This document shows positions 38,355 to 52,137 of a DNA stretch of 64,000 nt, piece after piece. Every line of letters begins with the position of its first letter. Position 1 is the first letter of the stretch. Made by a program: the position numbers and the translations under genes. The notes beneath the pieces are model-generated. The model was given only the letters and a program-made list of their open reading frames with translations, was not told the DNA's origin and made no database searches. This stretch comes from a virus. The stretch spans positions 102,605 through 166,604 of the IMG/VR virus record IMGVR_UViG_3300032286_000710. The stretch is one strand, 5' to 3'.

Positions 38355-39130
38355 TCCTGCTCTTCGTCTACCCATTGTAATGTTCTCCATTTCGAACCGT
38401 TATAGAACTTAACGGTGTCCGTTGTTTCATCGTATATGAAAGTACCCTTCTTAACGTTAAGATCGATGGAAGACTCTAATTGTAAATGTTTTACTGATAG
38501 TTTGTTAGCACTAAGTTTTGAGGCTTTAAGCGATAGCTGTTTGGTATACTTCGTTAAAGCTTCAGCTATGATATCACTAAAAACCTTACTGTCGAAAGAC
38601 ACGCTAGAAATATCGTTAACGTCTATGCGAGCTAAGAAAGAATTTTCTTTAATCTTGACTGAGCTAGCAACAAACGGGCCGGTAGAAGATAAGACACAAT
38701 TATCTTCATATAAGCACATGAAATAATGTTCGGGCAGAGTAGATCGTAATACTGTTACTAGATCTTTATCACAGGGGAAATAGTCGGTCTGTTTAAAACA
38801 AAATAACTTATCCTCTATGGACTTACCACTATATATCTGAAGAAATCTTTTAAAATAAGCTTTATCGTCTTGCTGGTAAGCATAGCCAAGACCATGCTCG
38901 TATCTAACAACTTTATTATTGGGGCCGTATGTTTCTAGAATGTAGAAGAATTTATTATCTTCGCCATATCCAATAACATTAGATATAGAGTTATCTTCAG
39001 TAATAAGCTTGTTATAAACGGCAGCTGAATAGTCGTAAGAAGCTTTAAATAGATTAGTAATTCCGCAAACTAAGAGATCGTTAGATCCATCTTGATTTAC
39101 TACAGTCTCAATCGCTTGACTTGGTTTCAT
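38351..39130 (-). CDS. Hypothetical protein
   Basis: 259 aa with a C-terminal GTFIYDETTDTVKFYNGSKW motif. Confidence 0.6.
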   Translation of the reverse strand: MKPSQAIETVVNQDGSNDLLVCGITNLFKASYDYSAAVYNKLITEDNSISNVIGYGEDNKFFYILETYGPNNKVVRYEHGLGYAYQQDDKAYFKRFLQIYSGKSIEDKLFCFKQTDYFPCDKDLVTVLRSTLPEHYFMCLYEDNCVLSSTGPFVASSVKIKENSFLARIDVNDISSVSFDSKVFSDIIAEALTKYTKQLSLKASKLSANKLSVKHLQLESSIDLNVKKGTFIYDETTDTVKFYNGSKWRTLQWVDEEQE

Positions 39131-39278
39131 CGTTTTCCTCTTCAGTATCCTTATCCTTAGTGGAGAGTAACGATGCTAGTGATTTATCCGTCTGATTTAA
39201 GTCAGATTCTATTTGTTGCTGTAAAGAAGCGGTAGCGCGACAATCCAATTGCGTTTCAATTGTTTGTTTCTTTTTCAT
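39108..39278 (-). CDS. Small hypothetical protein (56 aa), first gene of the late arm
   Basis: MKKKQTIETQLDCRATASLQQQ...; AGGAG RBS; GTGTATA at 39300-39306. Confidence 0.55.
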   Translation of the reverse strand: MKKKQTIETQLDCRATASLQQQIESDLNQTDKSLASLLSTKDKDTEEENDETKSSD

Positions 39279-39492
39279 AAAAAGTCTCCTATACGGTATT
39301 ATACACCTTATAGATATAATTTGACAGATTCACTGATCCAAACAGGGGCGATGGGGGAGGATTGGGTAGTACATTAGTTTATATGTTGGTAATTGTGAAT
39401 GGACCACCCCCGGTTTTTTCGACGTATCTTGCCTAGACTACTTATAAGATAAAACCCCCCCATATCCCCCATCTTAACATTATAGTGTGTGT

Positions 39493-39536
39493 GGTGGGCC
39501 GCGTTCGCCGTAAACCCTTATGGGGTATGGACTTAC
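39493..39536. repeat. Paired-palindrome element E1 (half copy)
   Basis: GC core followed by TAAACCCTT-N7-ATGGACTTA. Confidence 0.7.
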
Positions 39537-39585
39537 GACTAATCATATGAATGATACGATCAGCTCATTAAGGGAATAATATATT

Positions 39586-39601
39586 TGGCACAGCATTTGC
39601 T
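39586..39601 (+). promoter_or_regulatory. Sigma54-type -24/-12 site
   Basis: TGGCAC-AGCAT-TTGCT. Confidence 0.6.
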
Positions 39602-39660
39602 CTAGAGAATATTTATTGCTTTGGCACAAGATTATATTCAAAAATATTTTAGATTGCCAC

Positions 39661-39688
39661 TTGACATGGCCGATAAGTATGGTATAAT
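39661..39688 (+). promoter_or_regulatory. Early sigma70-type promoter
   Basis: TTGACA-16 bp-TATAAT with CGATA in the spacer. Confidence 0.8.
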
Positions 39689-39719
39689 AAGAGCATAAGA
39701 AAGAAAGAGAGAAAGAAAA

Positions 39720-39914
39720 ATGACAATCAACACTGAAATCAAGACAACCTACAATGGCAAGACTTATACGGGCTTCGTTGTAGAAAGCAAACTGGTCAAG
39801 GGTCGTGAGATGATCACGATCATGATTGAAGATAGTTCGCGGAATGAAGGTATTGGATACCGTAGCATGTATGTCGATATGATGTCTCAAACGTCAGAAA
39901 ATCTTTTTGCTTGA
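39720..39914 (+). CDS. Early hypothetical protein
   Basis: 64 aa after a promoter and a purine-only leader. Confidence 0.65.
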   Translation: MTINTEIKTTYNGKTYTGFVVESKLVKGREMITIMIEDSSRNEGIGYRSMYVDMMSQTSENLFA

Positions 39915-39917
39915 GGC

Positions 39918-39946
39918 TTGACACGGGAAAAGACGATAGATATAAT
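39918..39946 (+). promoter_or_regulatory. Early sigma70-type promoter
   Basis: TTGACA-17 bp-TATAAT. Confidence 0.8.
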
Positions 39947-39974
39947 AGAGAGAAAGAAAGAGAGAGAAAAGAAA

Positions 39975-40142
39975 ATGACATACTTCATTCAAATCTTAGA
40001 CGCTTGGGATTGTGAGATAGACTTTATCGGCCCCTTCAATACTGAAAACGAAGCCTATGAGGCTGGTTGGAGTAAGTGGGAAGGCGATGAAAATGCCTAT
40101 AGCAGTCATATCGTCAAGAGGCTCCCCGCTTCTACTCACTGA
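39975..40142 (+). CDS. Early small acidic protein
   Basis: MTYFIQILDAW...; start placed after the purine leader. Confidence 0.6.
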   Translation: MTYFIQILDAWDCEIDFIGPFNTENEAYEAGWSKWEGDENAYSSHIVKRLPASTH

Positions 40143-40218
40143 AAAAATATTTCCTAGGGGCTTGACACGGCGAAAGCCGATGTATATAATAGAGCGAAAG
40201 AAAGAAAAGGGAAAGAAA

Positions 40219-40347
40219 ATGACAACGCTGATTCTAATCGTGGTAGGAAAGAAGTATAAGGTATACAAGGATATGGGCAATGGTAAGCGTAGGCTTCTCG
40301 GCTCTTTCAATAGTTCGACTGAGGCCGAACGATTCATGAACGCTTGA
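40219..40347 (+). CDS. Early small basic protein (paralog of 42737..42886)
   Basis: GKKYKVYK...RRLL..F....EAERFMN; has its own promoter at 40162. Confidence 0.65.
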   Translation: MTTLILIVVGKKYKVYKDMGNGKRRLLGSFNSSTEAERFMNA

Positions 40348-40408
40348 CAAATAGATAGACGATAGATATAATATCCACAGTTATCTAACCCTAAGAAAGA
40401 AAAAGAAA

Positions 40409-40624
40409 ATGTTTGGCACTGCATACGCTGTCCGTAAGAATAACCTCAACACTATCTTCGCATCTATGATCGCTGGTAAGTATACCAGTGTGATCGACCC
40501 GAAGGGTAGGGTATATGCTGGCCTTATCAATGCTATCATGCGTGAGGATGGTAGTGGTCGCAACTGGATCGTAACCATCACGAATCAGACCAAGAGTGAA
40601 CAAGTGTTCATTCATGCAGTCTAG
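40409..40624 (+). CDS. Early hypothetical protein
   Basis: 71 aa behind a TTGACA/TATAAT promoter at 40344. Confidence 0.65.
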   Translation: MFGTAYAVRKNNLNTIFASMIAGKYTSVIDPKGRVYAGLINAIMREDGSGRNWIVTITNQTKSEQVFIHAV

Positions 40625-40678
40625 AGCGTACTATCTAATCCGCAGGGGTAAGCAGCACCCCCAACAGGGGGGAGCAAC

Positions 40679-40718
40679 AGCAAATCCTGTGCCAAAAAAT
40701 CTTGGCATACCATTTGCG
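40679..40718. promoter_or_regulatory. Back-to-back pair of sigma54-type sites
   Basis: Minus TGGCACAGGATTTGCT (40679-40694) and plus TGGCATACCATTTGCG (40703-40718), 8 bp apart. Confidence 0.6.
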
Positions 40719-40731
40719 TATAGATTTGTTC

Positions 40732-40809
40732 TAAACCCTTACCCTATAAGGACTTAGGGCGAGGGCGGCGGGCCGGATTTGACGTAAACCCTTACTGTAT
40801 ATAGACTTA
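40732..40809. repeat. Paired-palindrome element E2
   Basis: 25-bp palindrome, 28-bp GC core, 25-bp palindrome. Confidence 0.85.
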
Positions 40810-40896
40810 CGACTAGTAAGGACATCGCATCGAAGAGGTGTTTAAGGGAATAAAATATGCCATGCTCAAAAAATGGGCGTGGTAAGATAGGGGGAC

Positions 40897-41064
40897 TGTT
40901 GCAAAATCATACAGTGATGCAGTTTCTCGGCCAAAAGTGCTATAGCAAAATGCAACACACTGTAGCAAAATGCTACGCTTAATCTCTAGGCACAGAAAAT
41001 AGCATAGCGTTTTTCCCGCGAAATACGCACAAAAAAATAATCTATGATTGGCACGGGGTTTGCT
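40897..41064 (+). promoter_or_regulatory. Putative enhancer-dependent sigma54 promoter, copy 1
   Basis: Three TGTWGCAAAATGCWACA-like boxes (40897, 40941, 40961) and TGGCACGGGGTTTGCT at 41049-41064. Confidence 0.6.
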
Positions 41065-41100
41065 CTATATATAGATAGAGAAAGAAAGAGAGAGTTTAAG

Positions 41101-41532
41101 ATGATCGGTTTTTTTGATTTTGACATGACTACAGCGATTACAAAAGGTAAGGAAACTCCAAGTTTTAGCCAGTTTAAGAATCCTGAGTTTGCTGTAGAAG
41201 ATATTCTGAATGCAAAGCCTACAAAGATTACGAAAAACGTAATGAATAGGTATAAGAAAGTTTTTATTCTAACCGCTAGAAATGATGGAAAGAATAATGA
41301 AATGAGTAATGCAATGCAAAAGTATTTTATGCAAAATGGGATATATATTCCGAATAATCAGATTTTGATGCTTGGGGATTATATGAAAGATAGAAAGACT
41401 GCTGAAAAGAAATCAGTTGTGCTAAATAGGTTAAGTAAGCATTTTAAGCAAACTATTCATTTTTGGGATGATGATAACGATAACGTAAGATACGCAAGAT
41501 GCTTAGATAGGGTAAAGACATTCCAAGTCTGA
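41101..41532 (+). CDS. HAD-superfamily phosphatase-like protein
   Basis: FFDFDMT (motif I), ILTAR (II), K (III) and FWDD (IV). Confidence 0.7.
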   Translation: MIGFFDFDMTTAITKGKETPSFSQFKNPEFAVEDILNAKPTKITKNVMNRYKKVFILTARNDGKNNEMSNAMQKYFMQNGIYIPNNQILMLGDYMKDRKTAEKKSVVLNRLSKHFKQTIHFWDDDNDNVRYARCLDRVKTFQV

Positions 41533-41613
41533 AAAATATTTTCTGGGGCTTGACAAGCAAAAAGCCGATATATATAATAGGGAAAGAAGAAAGAAAGAGA
41601 AAAGGAAAAGAAA

Positions 41614-41826
41614 ATGAAGAATCTTAAGGTTTTCAATACGCTGAACGAGTTGATCGACTATCTTGACGAAAACGAAGTTGATACGCTTGTGGGTTATGCT
41701 GCTTTCGGGCTTGATCTTCTGGATCATGCTAGAAACAATGACAACGAAATCGAAATCGGTTGGGATGGTGGATTCATCCAGATTGACGATATGGGATACG
41801 TTGTTGCAGACTTTGCAATCTGCTAA
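41614..41826 (+). CDS. Early acidic hypothetical protein
   Basis: 70 aa; promoter at 41549. Confidence 0.65.
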   Translation: MKNLKVFNTLNELIDYLDENEVDTLVGYAAFGLDLLDHARNNDNEIEIGWDGGFIQIDDMGYVVADFAIC

Positions 41827-41900
41827 TCCCCCATAGGTGGGGTTGACACGTTAGAAAATCTTTATAGAATATATTTCATCACTTCAAAAGGAAAAAGAAA

Positions 41901-42086
41901 ATGACCAACGACTTTGTATACAATATGAGCGAAATCAACGAAGAGGATATCTACAGGGGCTGGGAAGAAATGGCAAACGAAGATAGCGAGTTATTTTTGG
42001 TAGTCTACGGTGTTCCCGGTGAAGATGAAGAAGATGAGGAAGATGGGTATGATGAGGACTTTTGGGGAGAGCAGTATTTCGCGTGA
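41901..42086 (+). CDS. Early highly acidic protein
   Basis: 61 aa, D/E-rich. Confidence 0.6.
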   Translation: MTNDFVYNMSEINEEDIYRGWEEMANEDSELFLVVYGVPGEDEEDEEDGYDEDFWGEQYFA

Positions 42087-42245
42087 GCAAATCCCGTGCC
42101 AAACGCGAATGGCACACGGTTTGCCCTAGGATTTGACCTAAACCCTTACTACCAAAGGACTTAGGGCGAATCCGGCGGGCCGGGTTTGCCGTAAACCCTT
42201 GATACATAAGGACTTAGGGCGAGTATCGACGCAAAGGCTGTGCCA
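42086..42245. repeat. Paired-palindrome element E3 (42139-42216) flanked by sigma54-type sites
   Basis: Sites at 42086-42101 (-), 42110-42125 (+) and 42230-42245 (-). The two inward-facing sites each lie 13 bp from the element. Confidence 0.85.
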
Positions 42246-42296
42246 AAAAATAATATATTCCAAGCCTAAAAAAGAGGCATGTTAAGATGGGCAATC

Positions 42297-42463
42297 CGTT
42301 GCAAAATGCTACACTACCTCAGTTTCACGGCGGAAATCACTAACGCAAAATGCTACAGGGTGTTGCAAAATGCTACGCTCAAAAACTAGGCACAAAAAAT
42401 GTCATAGCGTTTTTCCCGAGCGAAACGCAAAAAAAATAATCTATGTTTGGCACGGTAGTTGCT
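42297..42463 (+). promoter_or_regulatory. Putative enhancer-dependent sigma54 promoter, copy 2
   Basis: Three boxes (42297, 42341, 42361) with the same spacing as copy 1, then TGGCACGGTAGTTGCT at 42448-42463. Confidence 0.6.
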
Positions 42464-42497
42464 CTATATATAGGTATAAGAAAGAGAGTTTGAAAGA

Positions 42498-42664
42498 TGA
42501 GAAAGTCAAGTTATTACCGTGGTTCTGATGATGGATACGATTATTCCCGAGACAATCGGGATGGATATGTTGACGTTGAACTCCGTTTGTTGGAGATAGA
42601 TCGTCAGAATCGTGAGAATCAAAAGCGGTTCGAAGAATCGAAAAACAAAAACGAAAAATCGTAA
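42498..42664 (+). CDS. Small hypothetical protein (about 55 aa)
   Basis: MRKSSYYRGSDDGYDYSRD... Occupies the same position behind the duplicated promoter as the HAD gene; the 3' end is approximate. Confidence 0.5.
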
Positions 42665-42736
42665 GTTTTTCCGCTTGCGTCTTCAAGATTAGACGCTAGA
42701 ATGTCGATAGATAAGAAAGAGAAAAAGGAAAAGAAA

Positions 42737-42886
42737 ATGGAAACCACAGTTCTGATTTTTGATCGTAAGGGTAAAAAGTATAAGGTTTATAAGCAGACTA
42801 ACCATACAAACGGTTGGTATCGTCGTTTGCTTGCTACGTTCAAAACTTCTCAGGAAGCCGAAAGATTTATGAACTCCCGCCCATAA
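42737..42886 (+). CDS. Early small basic protein (paralog of 40219..40347)
   Basis: Shares GKKYKVYK and EAERFMN with the paralog. Confidence 0.65.
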   Translation: METTVLIFDRKGKKYKVYKQTNHTNGWYRRLLATFKTSQEAERFMNSRP

Positions 42887-42952
42887 GGGGGGTATGCAAG
42901 GCTGAAAAAGTTTCTTAGAATCATACCAGTATCACCAACCAAGAGAGAAAAA

Positions 42953-43282
42953 ATGGCTACAAAGTTTAAAATCATCGAAGATGCCAAGCGTCAAATCCGC
43001 TCATGCTTTTTGGGAATCGCCGTTCCCCACCAACCTAGCCTAGCCGATGGCGAATATGGGCCAATCAAGAGCGAAAAGGTAATCAAGTTTAATAAAACGG
43101 CTTTGCGAAATATGGGCAAGATGAAGAAAGAGAAAGTCGATCCCCGTCTTTTGGGGGGTAGTGATCTTATGGTTGATAAGGTAGGCAAACCGGGAAGCAA
43201 AGATAGAGTAGAGGCTTTACGGGCTTTCTATGAACTACAGAATATGGCAGGACAGGAAACCTCCGTGTTTTACGAAGAATAG
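42953..43282 (+). CDS. Early hypothetical protein
   Basis: 109 aa; GKPGSKDRVEALRAFY motif. Confidence 0.65.
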   Translation: MATKFKIIEDAKRQIRSCFLGIAVPHQPSLADGEYGPIKSEKVIKFNKTALRNMGKMKKEKVDPRLLGGSDLMVDKVGKPGSKDRVEALRAFYELQNMAGQETSVFYEE

Positions 43283-43290
43283 GGGTTTTT

Positions 43291-43402
43291 GGTAAGATAG
43301 GTAATCTGGGTAATCTTGGTAAGATAGGCAAGGGGGGTAATCTAGGCAAAATGGGGGGTTTGGGCGATCTGGGAAAACTGGGTAGTCTCGGCCAAAGTGG
43401 CC
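43291..43402. repeat. 9-bp-periodic G-rich tandem repeat
   Basis: GGTAAGATA, GGTAATCTG, GGTAATCTT, GGCAAAATG and similar; about 12 units. Confidence 0.6.
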
Positions 43403-43494
43403 GGATCATGTGGTAGTCAGCGTTGTCAGCGAGAAATCCCCTTGACAACTAAAGTCTAGAGTGTAGAATGTCGATATAAAGGAAAGAGGAAACA

Positions 43495-43716
43495 ATGAAC
43501 GAGTACCAAAAAGTATATAAGTTTGATAATGGGTACGGTGCTAGTGTGGTGTGTAACTCACTACTAGGAACCTATGGGTCTAAGGATGGATTGTTCGAAG
43601 TTGCCATTCTGAAAGGCGACGATATTTGCTACGATACCCCTATCTCCCCAGATGTTGTGGGGTGGCTTGACTTTGCCGGTGTGGCCGATATACTTAATCA
43701 AATCAAGGCTCTCTAA
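43495..43716 (+). CDS. Conserved phage hypothetical protein
   Basis: FDNGYGASVV...GLFEVAIL...DVVGWL motif. Confidence 0.75.
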   Translation: MNEYQKVYKFDNGYGASVVCNSLLGTYGSKDGLFEVAILKGDDICYDTPISPDVVGWLDFAGVADILNQIKAL

Positions 43717-43729
43717 CTAAGGAAAAAAG

Positions 43730-44032
43730 ATGAATCACACTGAAGCAACAAAGATGGTTCTTGGTAAGACTAATCGTGGTCAACGTAAGGTGGGAAATAA
43801 TACCTACGCTTACATTGAACATGACGGAAGTGTGGCGATTGAGTTGCACGGTACTAAGGTGGTGGTTTTTTATCCTAACGGGCTGGTAAAGTTGAACAGT
43901 GGTGGATATCGAACCAGCACTACTAAAAAGCGTATTAACCAGTATAGCCCCGTGAGTGTGTACCAGAAAAACTTTGAATGGTTTTTGCGTGATGGTACTC
44001 AGTTTGAAGATAATGTTTTGGTTACTAACTAA
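43730..44032 (+). CDS. Conserved phage hypothetical protein
   Basis: LHGTKV...LNSGGYRTSTTKKRINQY...VYQKNFEWF. Confidence 0.75.
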   Translation: MNHTEATKMVLGKTNRGQRKVGNNTYAYIEHDGSVAIELHGTKVVVFYPNGLVKLNSGGYRTSTTKKRINQYSPVSVYQKNFEWFLRDGTQFEDNVLVTN

Positions 44033-44047
44033 AGAAAGGGATCACGG

Positions 44048-44146
44048 ATGGTCGATATTAACTGGGTACAAATAGGTGTGGGATTTGTTATTGGCATTGG
44101 TTGCTCTTGGATTGTTTCTGATCTTGTTTTTCCAATAAGGAAGTGA
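44048..44146 (+). CDS. Small membrane peptide (32 aa)
   Basis: MVDINWVQIGVGFVIGIGCSWIVSDLVFPIRK. Confidence 0.5.
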   Translation: MVDINWVQIGVGFVIGIGCSWIVSDLVFPIRK

Positions 44147-44148
44147 AA

Positions 44149-44226
44149 ATGCGTACAGGTGATGCGATTGTTCTTTCTATTTCATTCGTGATCGGATGTA
44201 TAGCGGCTTGGATTGTGAATAGTTGA
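44149..44226 (+). CDS. Small membrane peptide (25 aa)
   Basis: MRTGDAIVLSISFVIGCIAAWIVNS; AAGGA RBS. Confidence 0.5.
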   Translation: MRTGDAIVLSISFVIGCIAAWIVNS

Positions 44227-44228
44227 CG

Positions 44229-44286
44229 TAACTCTATATCTGATAAGGGTTTAGGGCGAATGGGGCGGGCCGCGATTTTCGTGCCA
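44229..44286. repeat. Element E4 (half copy ending in a sigma54-like site)
   Basis: One palindrome, the GC core, then minus-strand TGGCACGAAAATCGCG. Confidence 0.75.
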
Positions 44287-44385
44287 AATCACCTTTCATC
44301 TTTTTAAGGAAAAAATATTGTTGGAGGGGGCTTGACGTTGCCGATAATCCCTGTATAATCGAAGTATCACCAAGGGAGAAAAGCG

Positions 44386-44556
44386 ATGTACGAGTTTGAT
44401 GATGTAGAGCGTGTTCTGGCTGAAGCAGCGGCTATTCAAGCAGAGCAGCATATGGTAGAGCCGATTGACGATCCGGCTGTGCTGTGCGATTTCTACGATT
44501 ATGCCGCGATTGTTGGTATTGACGTTGACGATTACCTTCCCGTAGAGTATACTTGA
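44386..44556 (+). CDS. Early acidic protein (56 aa)
   Basis: MYEFDDVERVLAE...; GGGAG RBS; promoter at 44332. Confidence 0.6.
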   Translation: MYEFDDVERVLAEAAAIQAEQHMVEPIDDPAVLCDFYDYAAIVGIDVDDYLPVEYT

Positions 44557-44566
44557 GGAGAGAAAG

Positions 44567-44767
44567 ATGAGTTGCCCCGATCCTACCCACGATTACGAGG
44601 ACTATGATATGGATCACCATGATGATACTGCCGACCCGAACGATTATCGTGACGATTACTATGATGATAGTATGGATGGCGACCACGATAGTGCTATGAA
44701 CTCTATCGGTTGGGACGTTGATGAAGGTTATGGATGTTTTGGTGACACTTACGGAGATGATTTCTGA
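44567..44767 (+). CDS. Extremely Asp-rich protein
   Basis: 66 aa; DDSMDGDHDSAMNSIGW motif; GAGGAG RBS. Confidence 0.7.
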   Translation: MSCPDPTHDYEDYDMDHHDDTADPNDYRDDYYDDSMDGDHDSAMNSIGWDVDEGYGCFGDTYGDDF

Positions 44768-45171
44768 TGAATGATGCGTTTACTTTGGGCATTTGTTTTG
44801 CTTGTGCCGTTGCGGTTATTGGTGTTTTTCTTCTATATAACATTTATAGGGGTGTAAATGATAGTCTTACTAATGCTGTTATTGGTACTGTATATAACTT
44901 TCGATACTTCCAGCCAGTAACGGGAGACTATGAAAGGTATCTCGCCAAGGTTGTTGGTGTTCGTAAGTTGAGTCAGGCTGAAATCTCACGTTTGAACTGG
45001 ACGAGCGATTACCGCCAATATGATAGTGAGTTTAAGCGTAGTCCTACGCTTGTTACATGCGAAATGGGTAACGGTGACTTTCGACAGTTCTATGCTGAAC
45101 GTAGTGACATGTGCAGACGTTCAGCTGTAGGTGAACTTTTGTTCAAGGCGGGTGTGGCACACCTGTTTTAA
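44767..45171 (+). CDS. Membrane-anchored hypothetical protein
   Basis: N-terminal transmembrane helix; 134 aa. Confidence 0.7.
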   Translation: MNDAFTLGICFACAVAVIGVFLLYNIYRGVNDSLTNAVIGTVYNFRYFQPVTGDYERYLAKVVGVRKLSQAEISRLNWTSDYRQYDSEFKRSPTLVTCEMGNGDFRQFYAERSDMCRRSAVGELLFKAGVAHLF

Positions 45172-46304: not shown

Positions 46305-46570
46305 TCGGGAATGGTGTAACGGTAGCACAAATGACTTTAACTAACCGGAGTGCATTATAGGGAAACCTTAAATTGTATAACCTCTCAAATTCGGGGAACG
46401 CTTAACTGCCAATCCCGAGCCAAGCCTATATGGAAGGTGTAACGACTTTACGGGAGGCGTCTAAAGCAATGCTATGACGAAGAGAAAGTCTAGACTACAA
46501 ACCGCAAGGGTAACGAAAGTTATAGTAGTATGTGGATCATTTTGTCTAGGTTCAAATCCTAGTTCCCGAA
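46305..46570 (+). tRNA. trnQ: tRNA-Gln(TTG) interrupted by a group I intron
   Basis: Exon 1 (46305-46337) joined to exon 2 (46533-46570) rebuilds AATGA-CT-TTG-GA-TCATT and the TCGGGAA/TTCCCGA acceptor stem. Confidence 0.88.
46338..46532 (+). ncRNA. Group I intron (IC3-like, 195 nt, no ORF)
   Basis: P AAATTCGGGGAA, Q AATCCCGAGC, R GTGTAACGACT, S AAGAGAAAGTC. P1 has a U·G wobble with the IGS GGAGTGCAT, and the intron ends in G. Confidence 0.88.
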
Positions 46571-47236
46571 CTTATTATAAGATTTAATCCATTTTCTTAC
46601 GGCGTTGTCACTAACGCCATACATTTTACCAATTGTAGTCATTGGATGATTTTTAATTAAATAATCTAATTCTTCTTTTGTTGGCCTGTCTACCTTCCTC
46701 AACCAAGGTTTTGGGCCTTGCTTACCTTTTTTAATTTTTGGTGGTTTTTTGAATCTTTTACCAGCATAAGTGTCTGTTTGACTATGACAATTTGGACATA
46801 AGAAACATAAATTTTCTAGTCTATTATCATTGGGAATACCATTTTTATGTTCAAGTTGTAATGATATCTTTTTGCCGTTCCACGTATTTAATAGTCCACA
46901 CTCTGCGCATTTATACTCAATTAAATTATTACGAATGATTCTTTGTTTAATACAGTTGCGATTCATAGTTCCATTTTCACAAAAATATTCGTGATTAGAT
47001 TTTTTAGGAGTAAATCGTTTTCCCTTATTTGAACCTTTACCAAGAGATATATGAGACATGTCTATATTTTCTTGCTTGGCCCTTCTTTTAACAGTGTTAT
47101 GGTTTCCACCCTTATTATTCATTCCAAAGTATCTTAAAATATCTGCAATTGTATTAGACTTAGAAACGAGATCTTTAAACTCATCTCTTGATATTGACCA
47201 TATAACGCTTCTATTTTTTCTTTTTTGTTCTTGCAT
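46559..47236 (-). CDS. Free-standing HNH homing endonuclease
   Basis: LQLEHKNG...DNRLENLCFLCPNCHSQT plus HTH modules; GTGTATA at 47294-47300. Confidence 0.85.
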   Translation of the reverse strand: MQEQKRKNRSVIWSISRDEFKDLVSKSNTIADILRYFGMNNKGGNHNTVKRRAKQENIDMSHISLGKGSNKGKRFTPKKSNHEYFCENGTMNRNCIKQRIIRNNLIEYKCAECGLLNTWNGKKISLQLEHKNGIPNDNRLENLCFLCPNCHSQTDTYAGKRFKKPPKIKKGKQGPKPWLRKVDRPTKEELDYLIKNHPMTTIGKMYGVSDNAVRKWIKSYNKFGN

Positions 47237-47307
47237 TTTTATTCCAAGTATGGTAAGATAACTGTGAATAGTAGATGTGTGATACCATATTATTATACAC
47301 AAAACAT

Positions 47308-47379
47308 ACGTAGGTAGCATAATGGTAGTGCCACAAACTGTTAATTTGTCATGTGTAGGTTCGACTCCTACCCTACGTG
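47308..47379 (+). tRNA. trnN: tRNA-Asn(GTT)
   Basis: Cloverleaf; loop CT-GTT-AA. Confidence 0.9.
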
Positions 47380-47544: not shown

Positions 47545-47602
47545 TAAGTCCTTATCTATCAAGGATTTAGGAACAACGGGGCGGGCCGCGTTTTTCGTGC
47601 CA
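47545..47602. repeat. Element E6 (half copy ending in a sigma54-like site)
   Basis: TAAGTCCTT-ATCTATC-AAGGATTTA, the GC core, then minus TGGCACGAAAAACGCG. Confidence 0.75.
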
Positions 47603-51519: not shown

Positions 51520-51781
51520 TTTTCATGGCCCTCGTCGCCCTGTTAATGGTCAAAAGATCATCTATTATGGTGAGGCTATTGGTGTGTGGCGTGGTACATA
51601 CAAGATAAACTATGATGATAAGTTTTGTATTCATAATATCTATTGTGGTGAAACTTGGGGAAATGTAGACTATATGGATGCCCCGTGGTGGATGCCAGAT
51701 TTAGGACAAGAGAAACCACAACCACCTAGCGAAGATTACCCCTCCGATTACCCTTGGATTAATAATAAGGAAAACAAATGA
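51506..51781 (+). CDS. DUF551-like hypothetical protein
   Basis: MEWIS...P...WMP motif. Confidence 0.55.
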   Translation: MEWISFHGPRRPVNGQKIIYYGEAIGVWRGTYKINYDDKFCIHNIYCGETWGNVDYMDAPWWMPDLGQEKPQPPSEDYPSDYPWINNKENK

Positions 51782-52137
51782 TTAACGTTGGAATGACGAT
51801 TCGTGAGATGGTGAGCATTGCTTCTAATGGTAGTTGCAATGGTGATCTGTATGAGCGGATTATCAAGGCTCTGGAACTGGCTACTGGCAATGAGAAGTTG
51901 CTGGTTGGCTGTAACGGTGTCAAGTATGATACTCAGTATTGGGATGGCAAGATTCCTGCTATCAAGAGCCTGCGTCTGGCTACTGGTATGGGATTGAAGG
52001 ATGCCAAGGATTGGGTTGAGGATGCCCAATACCACAGTGGAACTAAGTACACTGGCCCTCTTGATCCCGAAGTTGCACAAAAACTGTGCGACGAACTCAA
52101 GAAGTGTGGTATGGATTGCTGGACCACTAACTCTTGA
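51778..52137 (+). CDS. Ribosomal protein bL12 (L7/L12) C-terminal-domain protein
   Basis: KIPAIKSLRLATGMGLKDAKDWVE...EVAQKLCDELKKCG matches the bL12 CTD signature. Confidence 0.7.
   Translation: MINVGMTIREMVSIASNGSCNGDLYERIIKALELATGNEKLLVGCNGVKYDTQYWDGKIPAIKSLRLATGMGLKDAKDWVEDAQYHSGTKYTGPLDPEVAQKLCDELKKCGMDCWTTNS

Follow-up and report, generated by a model that had tools for sequence, protein, structure and literature searches.

Bacterial sigma-54 promoters are enhancer-dependent and include divergent pairs with a common enhancer; examples are glnAp2, which responds to NtrC, and pspA, which responds to PspF. The REP and BIME elements of enterobacteria are paired imperfect palindromes that lie in intergenic regions at operon ends and carry strand-asymmetric G-T/A-C positions. 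Intragenic and antisense sigma-54 sites have been described in Salmonella Typhimurium (PMC3844500), Pseudomonas phage YuA depends on the sigma-54 of its host (PMC5053324; bioRxiv 10.1101/2023.10.13.562163), and promoter-early stem-loop (PeSL) cassettes are known from phages RB49 and phi1 (PMC2839356). Here we analyze a 64,000-nucleotide stretch of viral DNA (positions 102,605 to 166,604 of IMG/VR record IMGVR_UViG_3300032286_000710; hereafter the window), in which boxes of the sigma-54 (RpoN) type stand at a fixed distance from a repeated double-palindrome element. We propose, with a probability of roughly 45%, that these boxes are host sigma-54 promoters placed beside a protein-bound operator. 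Such a promoter-plus-operator unit built with a phage palindrome looks like one that has no published description: the literature on sigma-54 boxes in phage intergenic modules yielded only YuA and general sigma-54 papers, and the coupling of box and palindrome is undescribed there.

The record is 166,604 bp long with direct terminal repeats, and the window is its right-hand 64 kb. An early-type region of small plus-strand open reading frames (ORFs) extends from about 39.5 to 57 kb. Perfect TGGCAC-N5-TTGC boxes number seven in the whole 166.6-kb genome and all lie within 2.9 kb of this region (39586-42462; Table 1), compared to none genome-wide for the reversed control pattern; with up to one mismatch allowed, the window holds 16 matches where 2.1 are expected. 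Each has the GG and GC dinucleotides 10 bp apart and the free N5 of the sigma-54 −24/−12 consensus, and three of them, 39586(+), 41049(+) and 42448(+), are placed like ordinary promoters. The early region also harbors a repeat family of seven full and three half copies (families D1, D2 and D8). A full element consists of a 25-bp palindrome, a 28-bp linker with a GC-rich core and a second palindrome, each palindrome being made of 9-bp arms of the TAAGTCCTT or TAAACCCTT type around a 7-bp centre. The elements stand behind gene ends and ahead of the next promoter. In E2 and E3, the two that concern us most, TAA...TTA 25-mers start at 40732, 40785, 42139 and 42192.

The initial annotation had reported inward-facing sigma-54 sites at both ends of E3 and on the left of E2, all of them 13 bp from the element. 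The sites are present, but direct counting gives a distance of 14 in each case (42125-42138 and 42217-42230 at E3, 40718-40731 at E2). The back-to-back partners that it placed exactly 8 bp from the left sites of E2 and E3 are indeed found at that spacing (40695-40702 and 42102-42109). When the C of TTGC is set at −12 according to standard numbering, the predicted +1 falls at the palindrome edge, as had been suggested, with TAA 3 nt and the extended arm CGTAA 1 nt further on. A sigma-54-like site had also been said to replace the second palindrome in E4 and E6, and degenerate boxes do occupy this place (TGGCACGAAAATCGC in E4, TGGCACGAAAAACGC in E6), abutting the GC core and each lying 18 nt from the remaining palindrome. 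E6 is a paralogue of E4, with 79% identity over 68 nt; among relatives this type of arrangement was not found, and it was seen in this genome only.

The spacing between box and palindrome is kept well beyond this genome. A palindrome-pattern scan of IMG/VR retrieved 118 loci totalling 1.18 Mb, which contain 127 strict boxes versus 7 matches to the reversed control; in these loci, boxes most often stand 14-15 nt ahead of the following palindrome (31 sites), and a smaller group stands 9-11 nt ahead (8 sites). A second scan across IMG/VR required a box and a palindrome but left the gap between them free, from 0 to 30 nt. Of the 106 unique pairs that resulted, 69 have a gap of 14-15 nt, 10 of 9-11, 9 of 16-17 and 9 of 19-20. 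Clustering at <85% identity leaves 86 clusters, 56 of which are at 14-15 nt, where a flat distribution would place about 3 in each bin. The distance is thus conserved in homologous elements.

Orientation is equally biased. As ORF-based strand calls proved unreliable with such tiny early genes, they were replaced by GC skew and by the direction of sigma-70 promoters: the former has 45 modules facing backward, against the early genes, and 10 forward; the latter, based on consensus promoters, 54 backward versus 15 forward. In the usual layout, the end of an upstream gene is followed by the double palindrome, a backward-facing box and the next forward promoter, which fires away. Only 42231(-) follows this layout in the window, 40703(+) and 42110(+) belonging to the forward-facing minority. 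The inward-facing pair at E3 is therefore real but not general: relatives usually have one backward-facing box, and doubly flanked elements are a minority variant, seen at E3 and on three further contigs (loci L111, L118 and L094). The 8-bp back-to-back partners are a minority variant as well.

Recognition of the boxes by sigma-54, binding of a protein to the palindrome and the function of the module are inferred from the sequence. In the promoter-plus-operator reading, the clade would have built host −24/−12 elements into the modules that part its early-gene cassettes. The start site would lie 1-3 bp before the palindrome, which would occupy about +4 to +28, or +2 onward with its CG flank. 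Because the start abuts the palindrome, a protein bound there would cover about +2 to +30, the DNA that polymerase must load for opening. Sigma-54 closed complexes end near −5. A stable closed complex could hence co-exist with the palindrome protein, while opening and loading of downstream DNA would be blocked until the protein leaves; firing would need an activator on the enhancer and, in addition, an operator that is free or from which the protein has been displaced. In its usual form, represented here by 42231(-), the promoter would point back from the upstream edge of the next promoter into the boundary element. The expected output would be enhancer-dependent counter-transcription into the boundary, or a parked polymerase that shapes the boundary and the neighboring promoter, with no coding message in either case. 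The forward-facing 40703(+) and 42110(+) and their 8-bp partners would be variants of the same module.

Candidate enhancers are present at suitable positions. Palindromic boxes of the GTAGCA-N3-TGCTAC type are enriched at −80 to −180 of sigma-54 boxes across the clade. In the window, 42231(-) has them at about −86, −130 and −150 and 42448(+) at −105, −125 and −169; these two sigma-54 boxes are predicted to be a divergent pair with one common enhancer. Box 41049(+), like 42448(+), has three such boxes upstream. A different palindromic box, CCTTAC-N5-GTAAGG, is seen near some sigma-54 boxes and had no positional enrichment.

One could go further and regard the palindrome factor as a new kind of sigma-54 gate, which would sit at +2 to +30 on a parked closed complex until host enhancer-binding proteins turn on backward transcription. 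We consider this extension unlikely. Should it hold, a host stress, nutrient or defence signal would switch boundary counter-transcription together with a few forward genes, such as the PNKP-phosphatase-like 41101, and the early programme of an entire clade of uncultured phages from lakes and the sea would be tied to host sigma-54 signalling.

Several observations weigh against the promoter-plus-operator reading itself. Only about one in eight elements bears a sigma-54 box, hence the main role of the element needs no sigma-54. Boxes 40703(+) and 42110(+) have no enhancer boxes upstream, where the DNA is coding sequence. The phage encodes no sigma-54 or enhancer-binding ATPase (no match to PF00158, PF04552 or PF04963), and a Pfam search of 30 early ORFs gave no plausible palindrome-binding regulator. 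The spacing classes at 9-10 and 14-15 nt are 5 nt apart, which argues against a rigid face-of-helix contact between polymerase and protein. Finally, relatives contain overlapping arrays of boxes that holoenzyme could not occupy all at once, and for these docking sites fit at least as well as promoters.

Docking is indeed the main rival, and we hold it to be rather unlikely. The boxes would not be working promoters; they would bind free sigma-54, a never-activated closed polymerase or a look-alike phage protein. Together with the protein on the palindrome they would make up a static nucleoprotein structure at the boundary, whose role could be that of insulator, roadblock or host sigma-54 sink. 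The arrays speak for this reading, the boxes alternating in orientation at fixed gaps, back-to-back at exactly 8 bp (9 cases in 7 contigs) and face-to-face at 4-6 bp (13 cases). It would also explain boxes that face backward with no coding target, and it would supply a boundary device, which is needed since the early region has no excess of intrinsic terminators (14 versus 12.7 expected). In Salmonella, moreover, sigma-54 sites located beside other promoters have been proposed to repress or activate them (PMC3844500). Also in its favor is the distance from the sigma-70 −35 to the box, which clusters at 21-23, 31-33, 41-44, 55-57 and 67-69 nt (22 of 76 modules, with a consensus sigma-70 promoter within 160 nt). 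The resulting ladder of about 10.5-11 bp (Rayleigh R 0.5-0.67 over periods of 10.5-11 bp and, varying with sample and period, p about 0.0001-0.004; n=22) is suggestive only, the sample being small and several periods having been tried. The docking reading is at odds with the motif itself, which is asymmetric and follows the RpoN consensus with a free N5, whereas a dimeric phage protein would be expected on a symmetric site. Nor does it account for the enhancer-like boxes upstream of many sites, including 42231(-), or for the uncoupled boxes 41049 and 42448, which are promoter-like in standing 34-37 nt before start codons.

Some features of these neighborhoods deserve separate mention. Face-to-face boxes and +/−/+ triplets are seen in relatives such as L101:4973-5030, L103, L083 and L108. 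In the window, E4 (45 nt) and E6 (55 nt) agree with the ladder of −35-to-box distances. In relatives (L094:5140-5310, L008), a TGTCAA-N6-TTGACA inverted repeat lies directly upstream of many early promoters and may be a further operator.

The three remaining readings rank below both promoter-plus-operator and docking. The first of them, quite unlikely in our view, is that box and palindrome hitch-hike within one cassette of about 130 bp spread by recombination, so that the fixed distance would reflect common descent. All modules are homologous, E2/E3 and E4/E6 are paralogue pairs, and the PeSL cassettes of T4-type phages do spread (PMC2839356). The 9-10-nt class, too, looks like a single 5-nt deletion inherited within a subfamily. 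Common descent nevertheless accounts for the origin of the arrangement, not for its maintenance. In an alignment of 46 diverged modules, G2, G3, A5 and TTGC of the box are invariant, N5 is variable and the spacer is essentially free in sequence, its length being kept; yet these modules place the neighboring sigma-70 −35 anywhere from 21 to 110 nt from the box. Insertions and deletions are therefore common around the spacer between box and palindrome, but excluded within it.

The E2/E3 pair repeats this contrast on a smaller scale. Both elements lie inside a segmental duplication of about 385 bp with roughly 75% identity (families D4 and D6). Their sigma-54 boxes agree at 19 of 20 positions and the three fully palindromic arms at 9/9 each, the degenerate right arm of the second E2 palindrome agreeing at 7/9. 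By comparison, only 2/8 positions are identical in the 8-bp spacer, 7/14 in the 14-nt spacer, and 2/7 and 3/7 in the palindrome centres. The right-hand sigma-54 box is present at E3 only. As motifs were kept while spacers were randomised in sequence, the duplication must be old, with motifs and spacer lengths retained. One recent duplication, the explanation that could have undone the initial annotation, thus fails to explain the fixed distances, and with the spacing kept in relatives its proposal of one composite module stands.

Two mechanisms had been suggested for this module: sigma-54 polymerase held beside a bound protein, which fits the data, and convergent transcription of hairpin RNAs, which finds neither a consensus fold nor covariation. 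In the latter, short structured RNAs of about 80-100 nt, convergent and complementary at E3, would contain the palindromes as hairpins. We judge this very unlikely. The predicted +1 at the palindrome edge would suit it, and E3 does fold into one long hairpin of about −38 kcal/mol on either strand (z about −4.8), but E2 folds no better than shuffled sequence (z −0.2 and −1.6). RNAalifold detected no element helix in the 46-module alignment, with a consensus energy of −1.2 kcal/mol. Under a two-hairpin model 81.2% of cells are paired versus 82.6% in shuffles, and covariation is below that of 500/500 shuffles; under a one-long-hairpin model the corresponding values are 82.9%, 83.6% and 483/500. 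In the box-proximal palindrome, whose near half is usually TAAGTCGTT, inner positions are unpaired in more than half of the modules. The distal palindrome is more favorable to an RNA product: its polarity is compatible with G-U pairing on the sigma-54 strand in 27 of 39 informative cases (27 versus 12), and in backward-facing modules it would form two G-U wobbles on that strand and mismatches on the other. Against this, members of the 9-10-nt class would start transcription within the left arm, no U-run was seen directly behind the stems, and a scan for terminator-like structures gave zero hits in the elements.

The palindromes fit better with duplex recognition by a protein on one helix face. 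They have the form of a symmetric operator, with 9-bp arms, a variable centre of fixed 7-bp length and no covariation between arms. Perfect palindromes account for just 6 of the 163 oriented copies. The arms are independent or anti-correlated, with a half-site identity of 0.56 versus 0.65 in shuffles. Mixed half-sites (ACCC with GTCC) make up 99 of 281, with GTCC/GTCC seen 10 times (about 39 expected) and ACCC/ACCC 4 times (about 20 expected). In 40 of 46 modules the palindromes stand 53 bp from each other, a spacing that we read as about five helical turns; by geometric reasoning, the protein would make outer contacts separated by about 20 bp and inner contacts separated by about 11 bp. The two halves of a palindrome favor different variants (TAAACCCTT with TAAGTCCTT), and each of the four half-sites has its own preferred variant. 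This preference, the G-U-compatible polarity of the distal palindrome and the depletion of perfect palindromes are accounted for by none of the models considered here.

Least probable of all, and hardly credible, is a transcription-primed replication origin or DNA-processing site in which a sigma-54 transcript into the GC core would act as primer or R-loop: origins of T4 and T7 do combine a promoter with a structured region behind it, and the GC-rich core between AT-rich arms would suit this role, but ten elements within 17 kb, most of them lacking a box, would not, the core faces either way relative to the box, with G-rich and C-rich strands both found, and no replication-initiator site was found.

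Table 1. Sigma-54 boxes, enhancer-like boxes and selected palindrome elements of the window (window coordinates)
Feature	Position	Strand	Description
Sigma-54 box, perfect	39586-39600	+	Sense; lies between half-element E1 (50 nt upstream) and the first sigma-70 early promoter (39661, about 60 nt downstream)
Sigma-54 box, perfect (TGGCACAGGATTTGC)	40680-40694	-	Back-to-back partner at E2, facing left into the upstream gene
Sigma-54 box, TGGCAT variant	40703-40717	+	Faces E2, 14 nt before palindrome 40732; rare sense orientation
Element E2	40732-40809		Palindromes 40732-40756 and 40785-40809 (right arm degenerate), 28-bp linker with GC core
Three enhancer-like boxes (GTAGCA-N3-TGCTAC type)	40898-40976		Upstream of sigma-54 box 41049
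Sigma-54 box, perfect, uncoupled	41049-41063	+	37 nt ahead of the ATG of gene 41101-41532
Sigma-54 box, perfect	42087-42101	-	Back-to-back partner at E3; begins one base past the stop codon of gene 41901-42086
Sigma-54 box, perfect	42110-42124	+	Faces E3, 14 nt before palindrome 42139; sense orientation
Element E3	42139-42216		Palindromes 42139-42163 and 42192-42216, whose starts are 53 bp apart; GC core CCGGCGGGCCGG in the linker
Sigma-54 box, perfect	42231-42245	-	Faces E3 from the right, 14 nt past the palindrome end; usual backward-facing type
Three enhancer-like boxes	42298-42376		Common to the divergent boxes 42231(-) and 42448(+)
Sigma-54 box, perfect, uncoupled	42448-42462	+	34 nt ahead of the ATG of gene 42497-42664
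Element E4	44229-44286	-	One degenerate palindrome, GC core, one-mismatch sigma-54-like box 44272-44286(-) replacing the second palindrome (family D8)
Element E6	47545-47602	-	Palindrome 47545-47569, GC core, two-mismatch sigma-54-like box 47588-47602(-) (family D8)

Minus-strand structural genes, including a tail fibre and the large terminase, end at 39130; the early region that follows has about 25 near-consensus sigma-70 promoters and eight tRNA genes. Near and distant DNA searches with positions 39000-45000 of the window gave zero matches in cultured-phage records, and the large terminase shares only about 25% identity with those of Bacillus and Microcystis phages, so that the phage has no cultured relative. 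In bacterial genome collections the box-palindrome composite has 9 matches, all on contigs of at most 10.5 kb from metagenome-assembled genomes (MAGs); the bins are four Planctomycetaceae and, in addition, Gammaproteobacteria, Micavibrio, Vicinamibacterales, Thiobacillus and Bathyarchaeia. We rejected the composite as a native bacterial system or as a pointer to the host, since short contigs from unrelated bins are probably mis-binned phage DNA; on this distribution the composite looks phage-specific. Four of the nine matches (L219, L220, L223 and L224) are on short contigs of two Planctomycetaceae MAGs, which may be mis-binned phage DNA or a hint of the host.

Among the early genes, 41101-41532(+), located behind the uncoupled box 41049, has a weak match, below threshold, to the phosphatase (HAD) domain of PNKP (E 0.0016); if this match were true, an RNA-repair-type enzyme would be controlled by sigma-54. 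The gene most widely shared among related loci (55 loci) is 42953-43282(+), which encodes 109 amino acids with the invariant motifs GKPGS and SEK..KF; the protein, considered as a palindrome binder, had no sequence or fold match in Pfam, Atlas or PDB, and its structure model is of low confidence (pLDDT 69, pTM 0.34). Behind it, about twelve 9-bp units of the GGTAAGATA / GGTAATCTN type stand head-to-tail at 43289-43400. Single copies of a GGTAAGATAGG-type word occur at 40881 and 42281, directly ahead of the enhancer boxes in the modules of E2 and E3, and the word is seen again near modules of relatives. The sole sizeable minus-strand ORF of the early region, 46559-47320(-), lies within the tRNA cluster; its weak matches to HNH and helix-turn-helix domains make a free-standing homing endonuclease probable. 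The small early ORF 51778-52137(+) encodes a protein with a match to the ribosomal L7/L12 C-terminal domain (E 6e-7).

The spacing, orientation and partner motifs of the module are known to the base, which makes the proposal testable. If the boxes fire, these phages would read a host signalling route that needs ATP-dependent activators and would sense the state of the host in early infection. If they only dock, the unusually stable sigma-54 closed complex would find a new structural use at a genome boundary. Either outcome would inform how large phages organise and insulate their early-gene cassettes.

Comparison with the described systems reveals partial likeness to each. The elements share with REP and BIME their imperfect palindrome pairs, intergenic location and strand-asymmetric positions. 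However, REP pairs are inverted, act mostly as hairpins in RNA or single-stranded DNA and are associated with RAYT transposases, whereas the pairs described here are direct, belong to a phage, have no known transposase and give no pairing signal. The PeSL cassettes of RB49 and phi1 (PMC2839356) are a closer parallel in architecture: they too are repeated intergenic modules of a hyperplastic early region, lying between small ORFan genes, and combine a strong sigma-70 promoter, an AT-rich upstream part and a GC-containing symmetric element. In the window, the consensus sigma-70 promoters at 44332, 45294, 47658, 52256 and 55216, with such an AT-rich upstream part, follow elements. A PeSL, however, is a proven stem-loop terminator and carries no sigma-54 box, in contrast to the present palindromes, which have no conserved pairing and are organised as a double unit of 25+28+25 bp.

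With regard to sigma-54, the Salmonella sites resemble the present boxes in having no downstream gene, and repression, transcriptional interference, antisense RNA and modulation of sigma-70 promoters have been proposed for them (PMC3844500); they differ in being scattered, with no fixed distance to another conserved motif. YuA, a lytic phage, offers a precedent for host sigma-54 acting alongside sigma-70 promoters, as we propose here. It was unrelated to this phage in all searches done, and the papers cited on YuA mention one sigma-54-like promoter region and no palindrome coupling, backward boxes or arrays. Use of host sigma-54 by a cultured phage is documented for YuA only; the present case concerns a large uncultured clade, with 86 non-redundant modules across IMG/VR. 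Bacterial sigma-54 promoters, finally, are matched in their exact −24/−12 consensus and variable N5 and, at 42231(-), 42448(+) and 41049(+), in the three palindromic boxes at about −85 to −170. Unlike in bacteria, the genome that carries the boxes encodes neither sigma-54 nor its activator, and the coupled boxes mostly run against the genes, with no coding target. What sets the phage module apart is its geometry: a 25-bp palindrome fixed at +4 to +28, and overlapping arrays with gaps of 8 bp and 4-6 bp.

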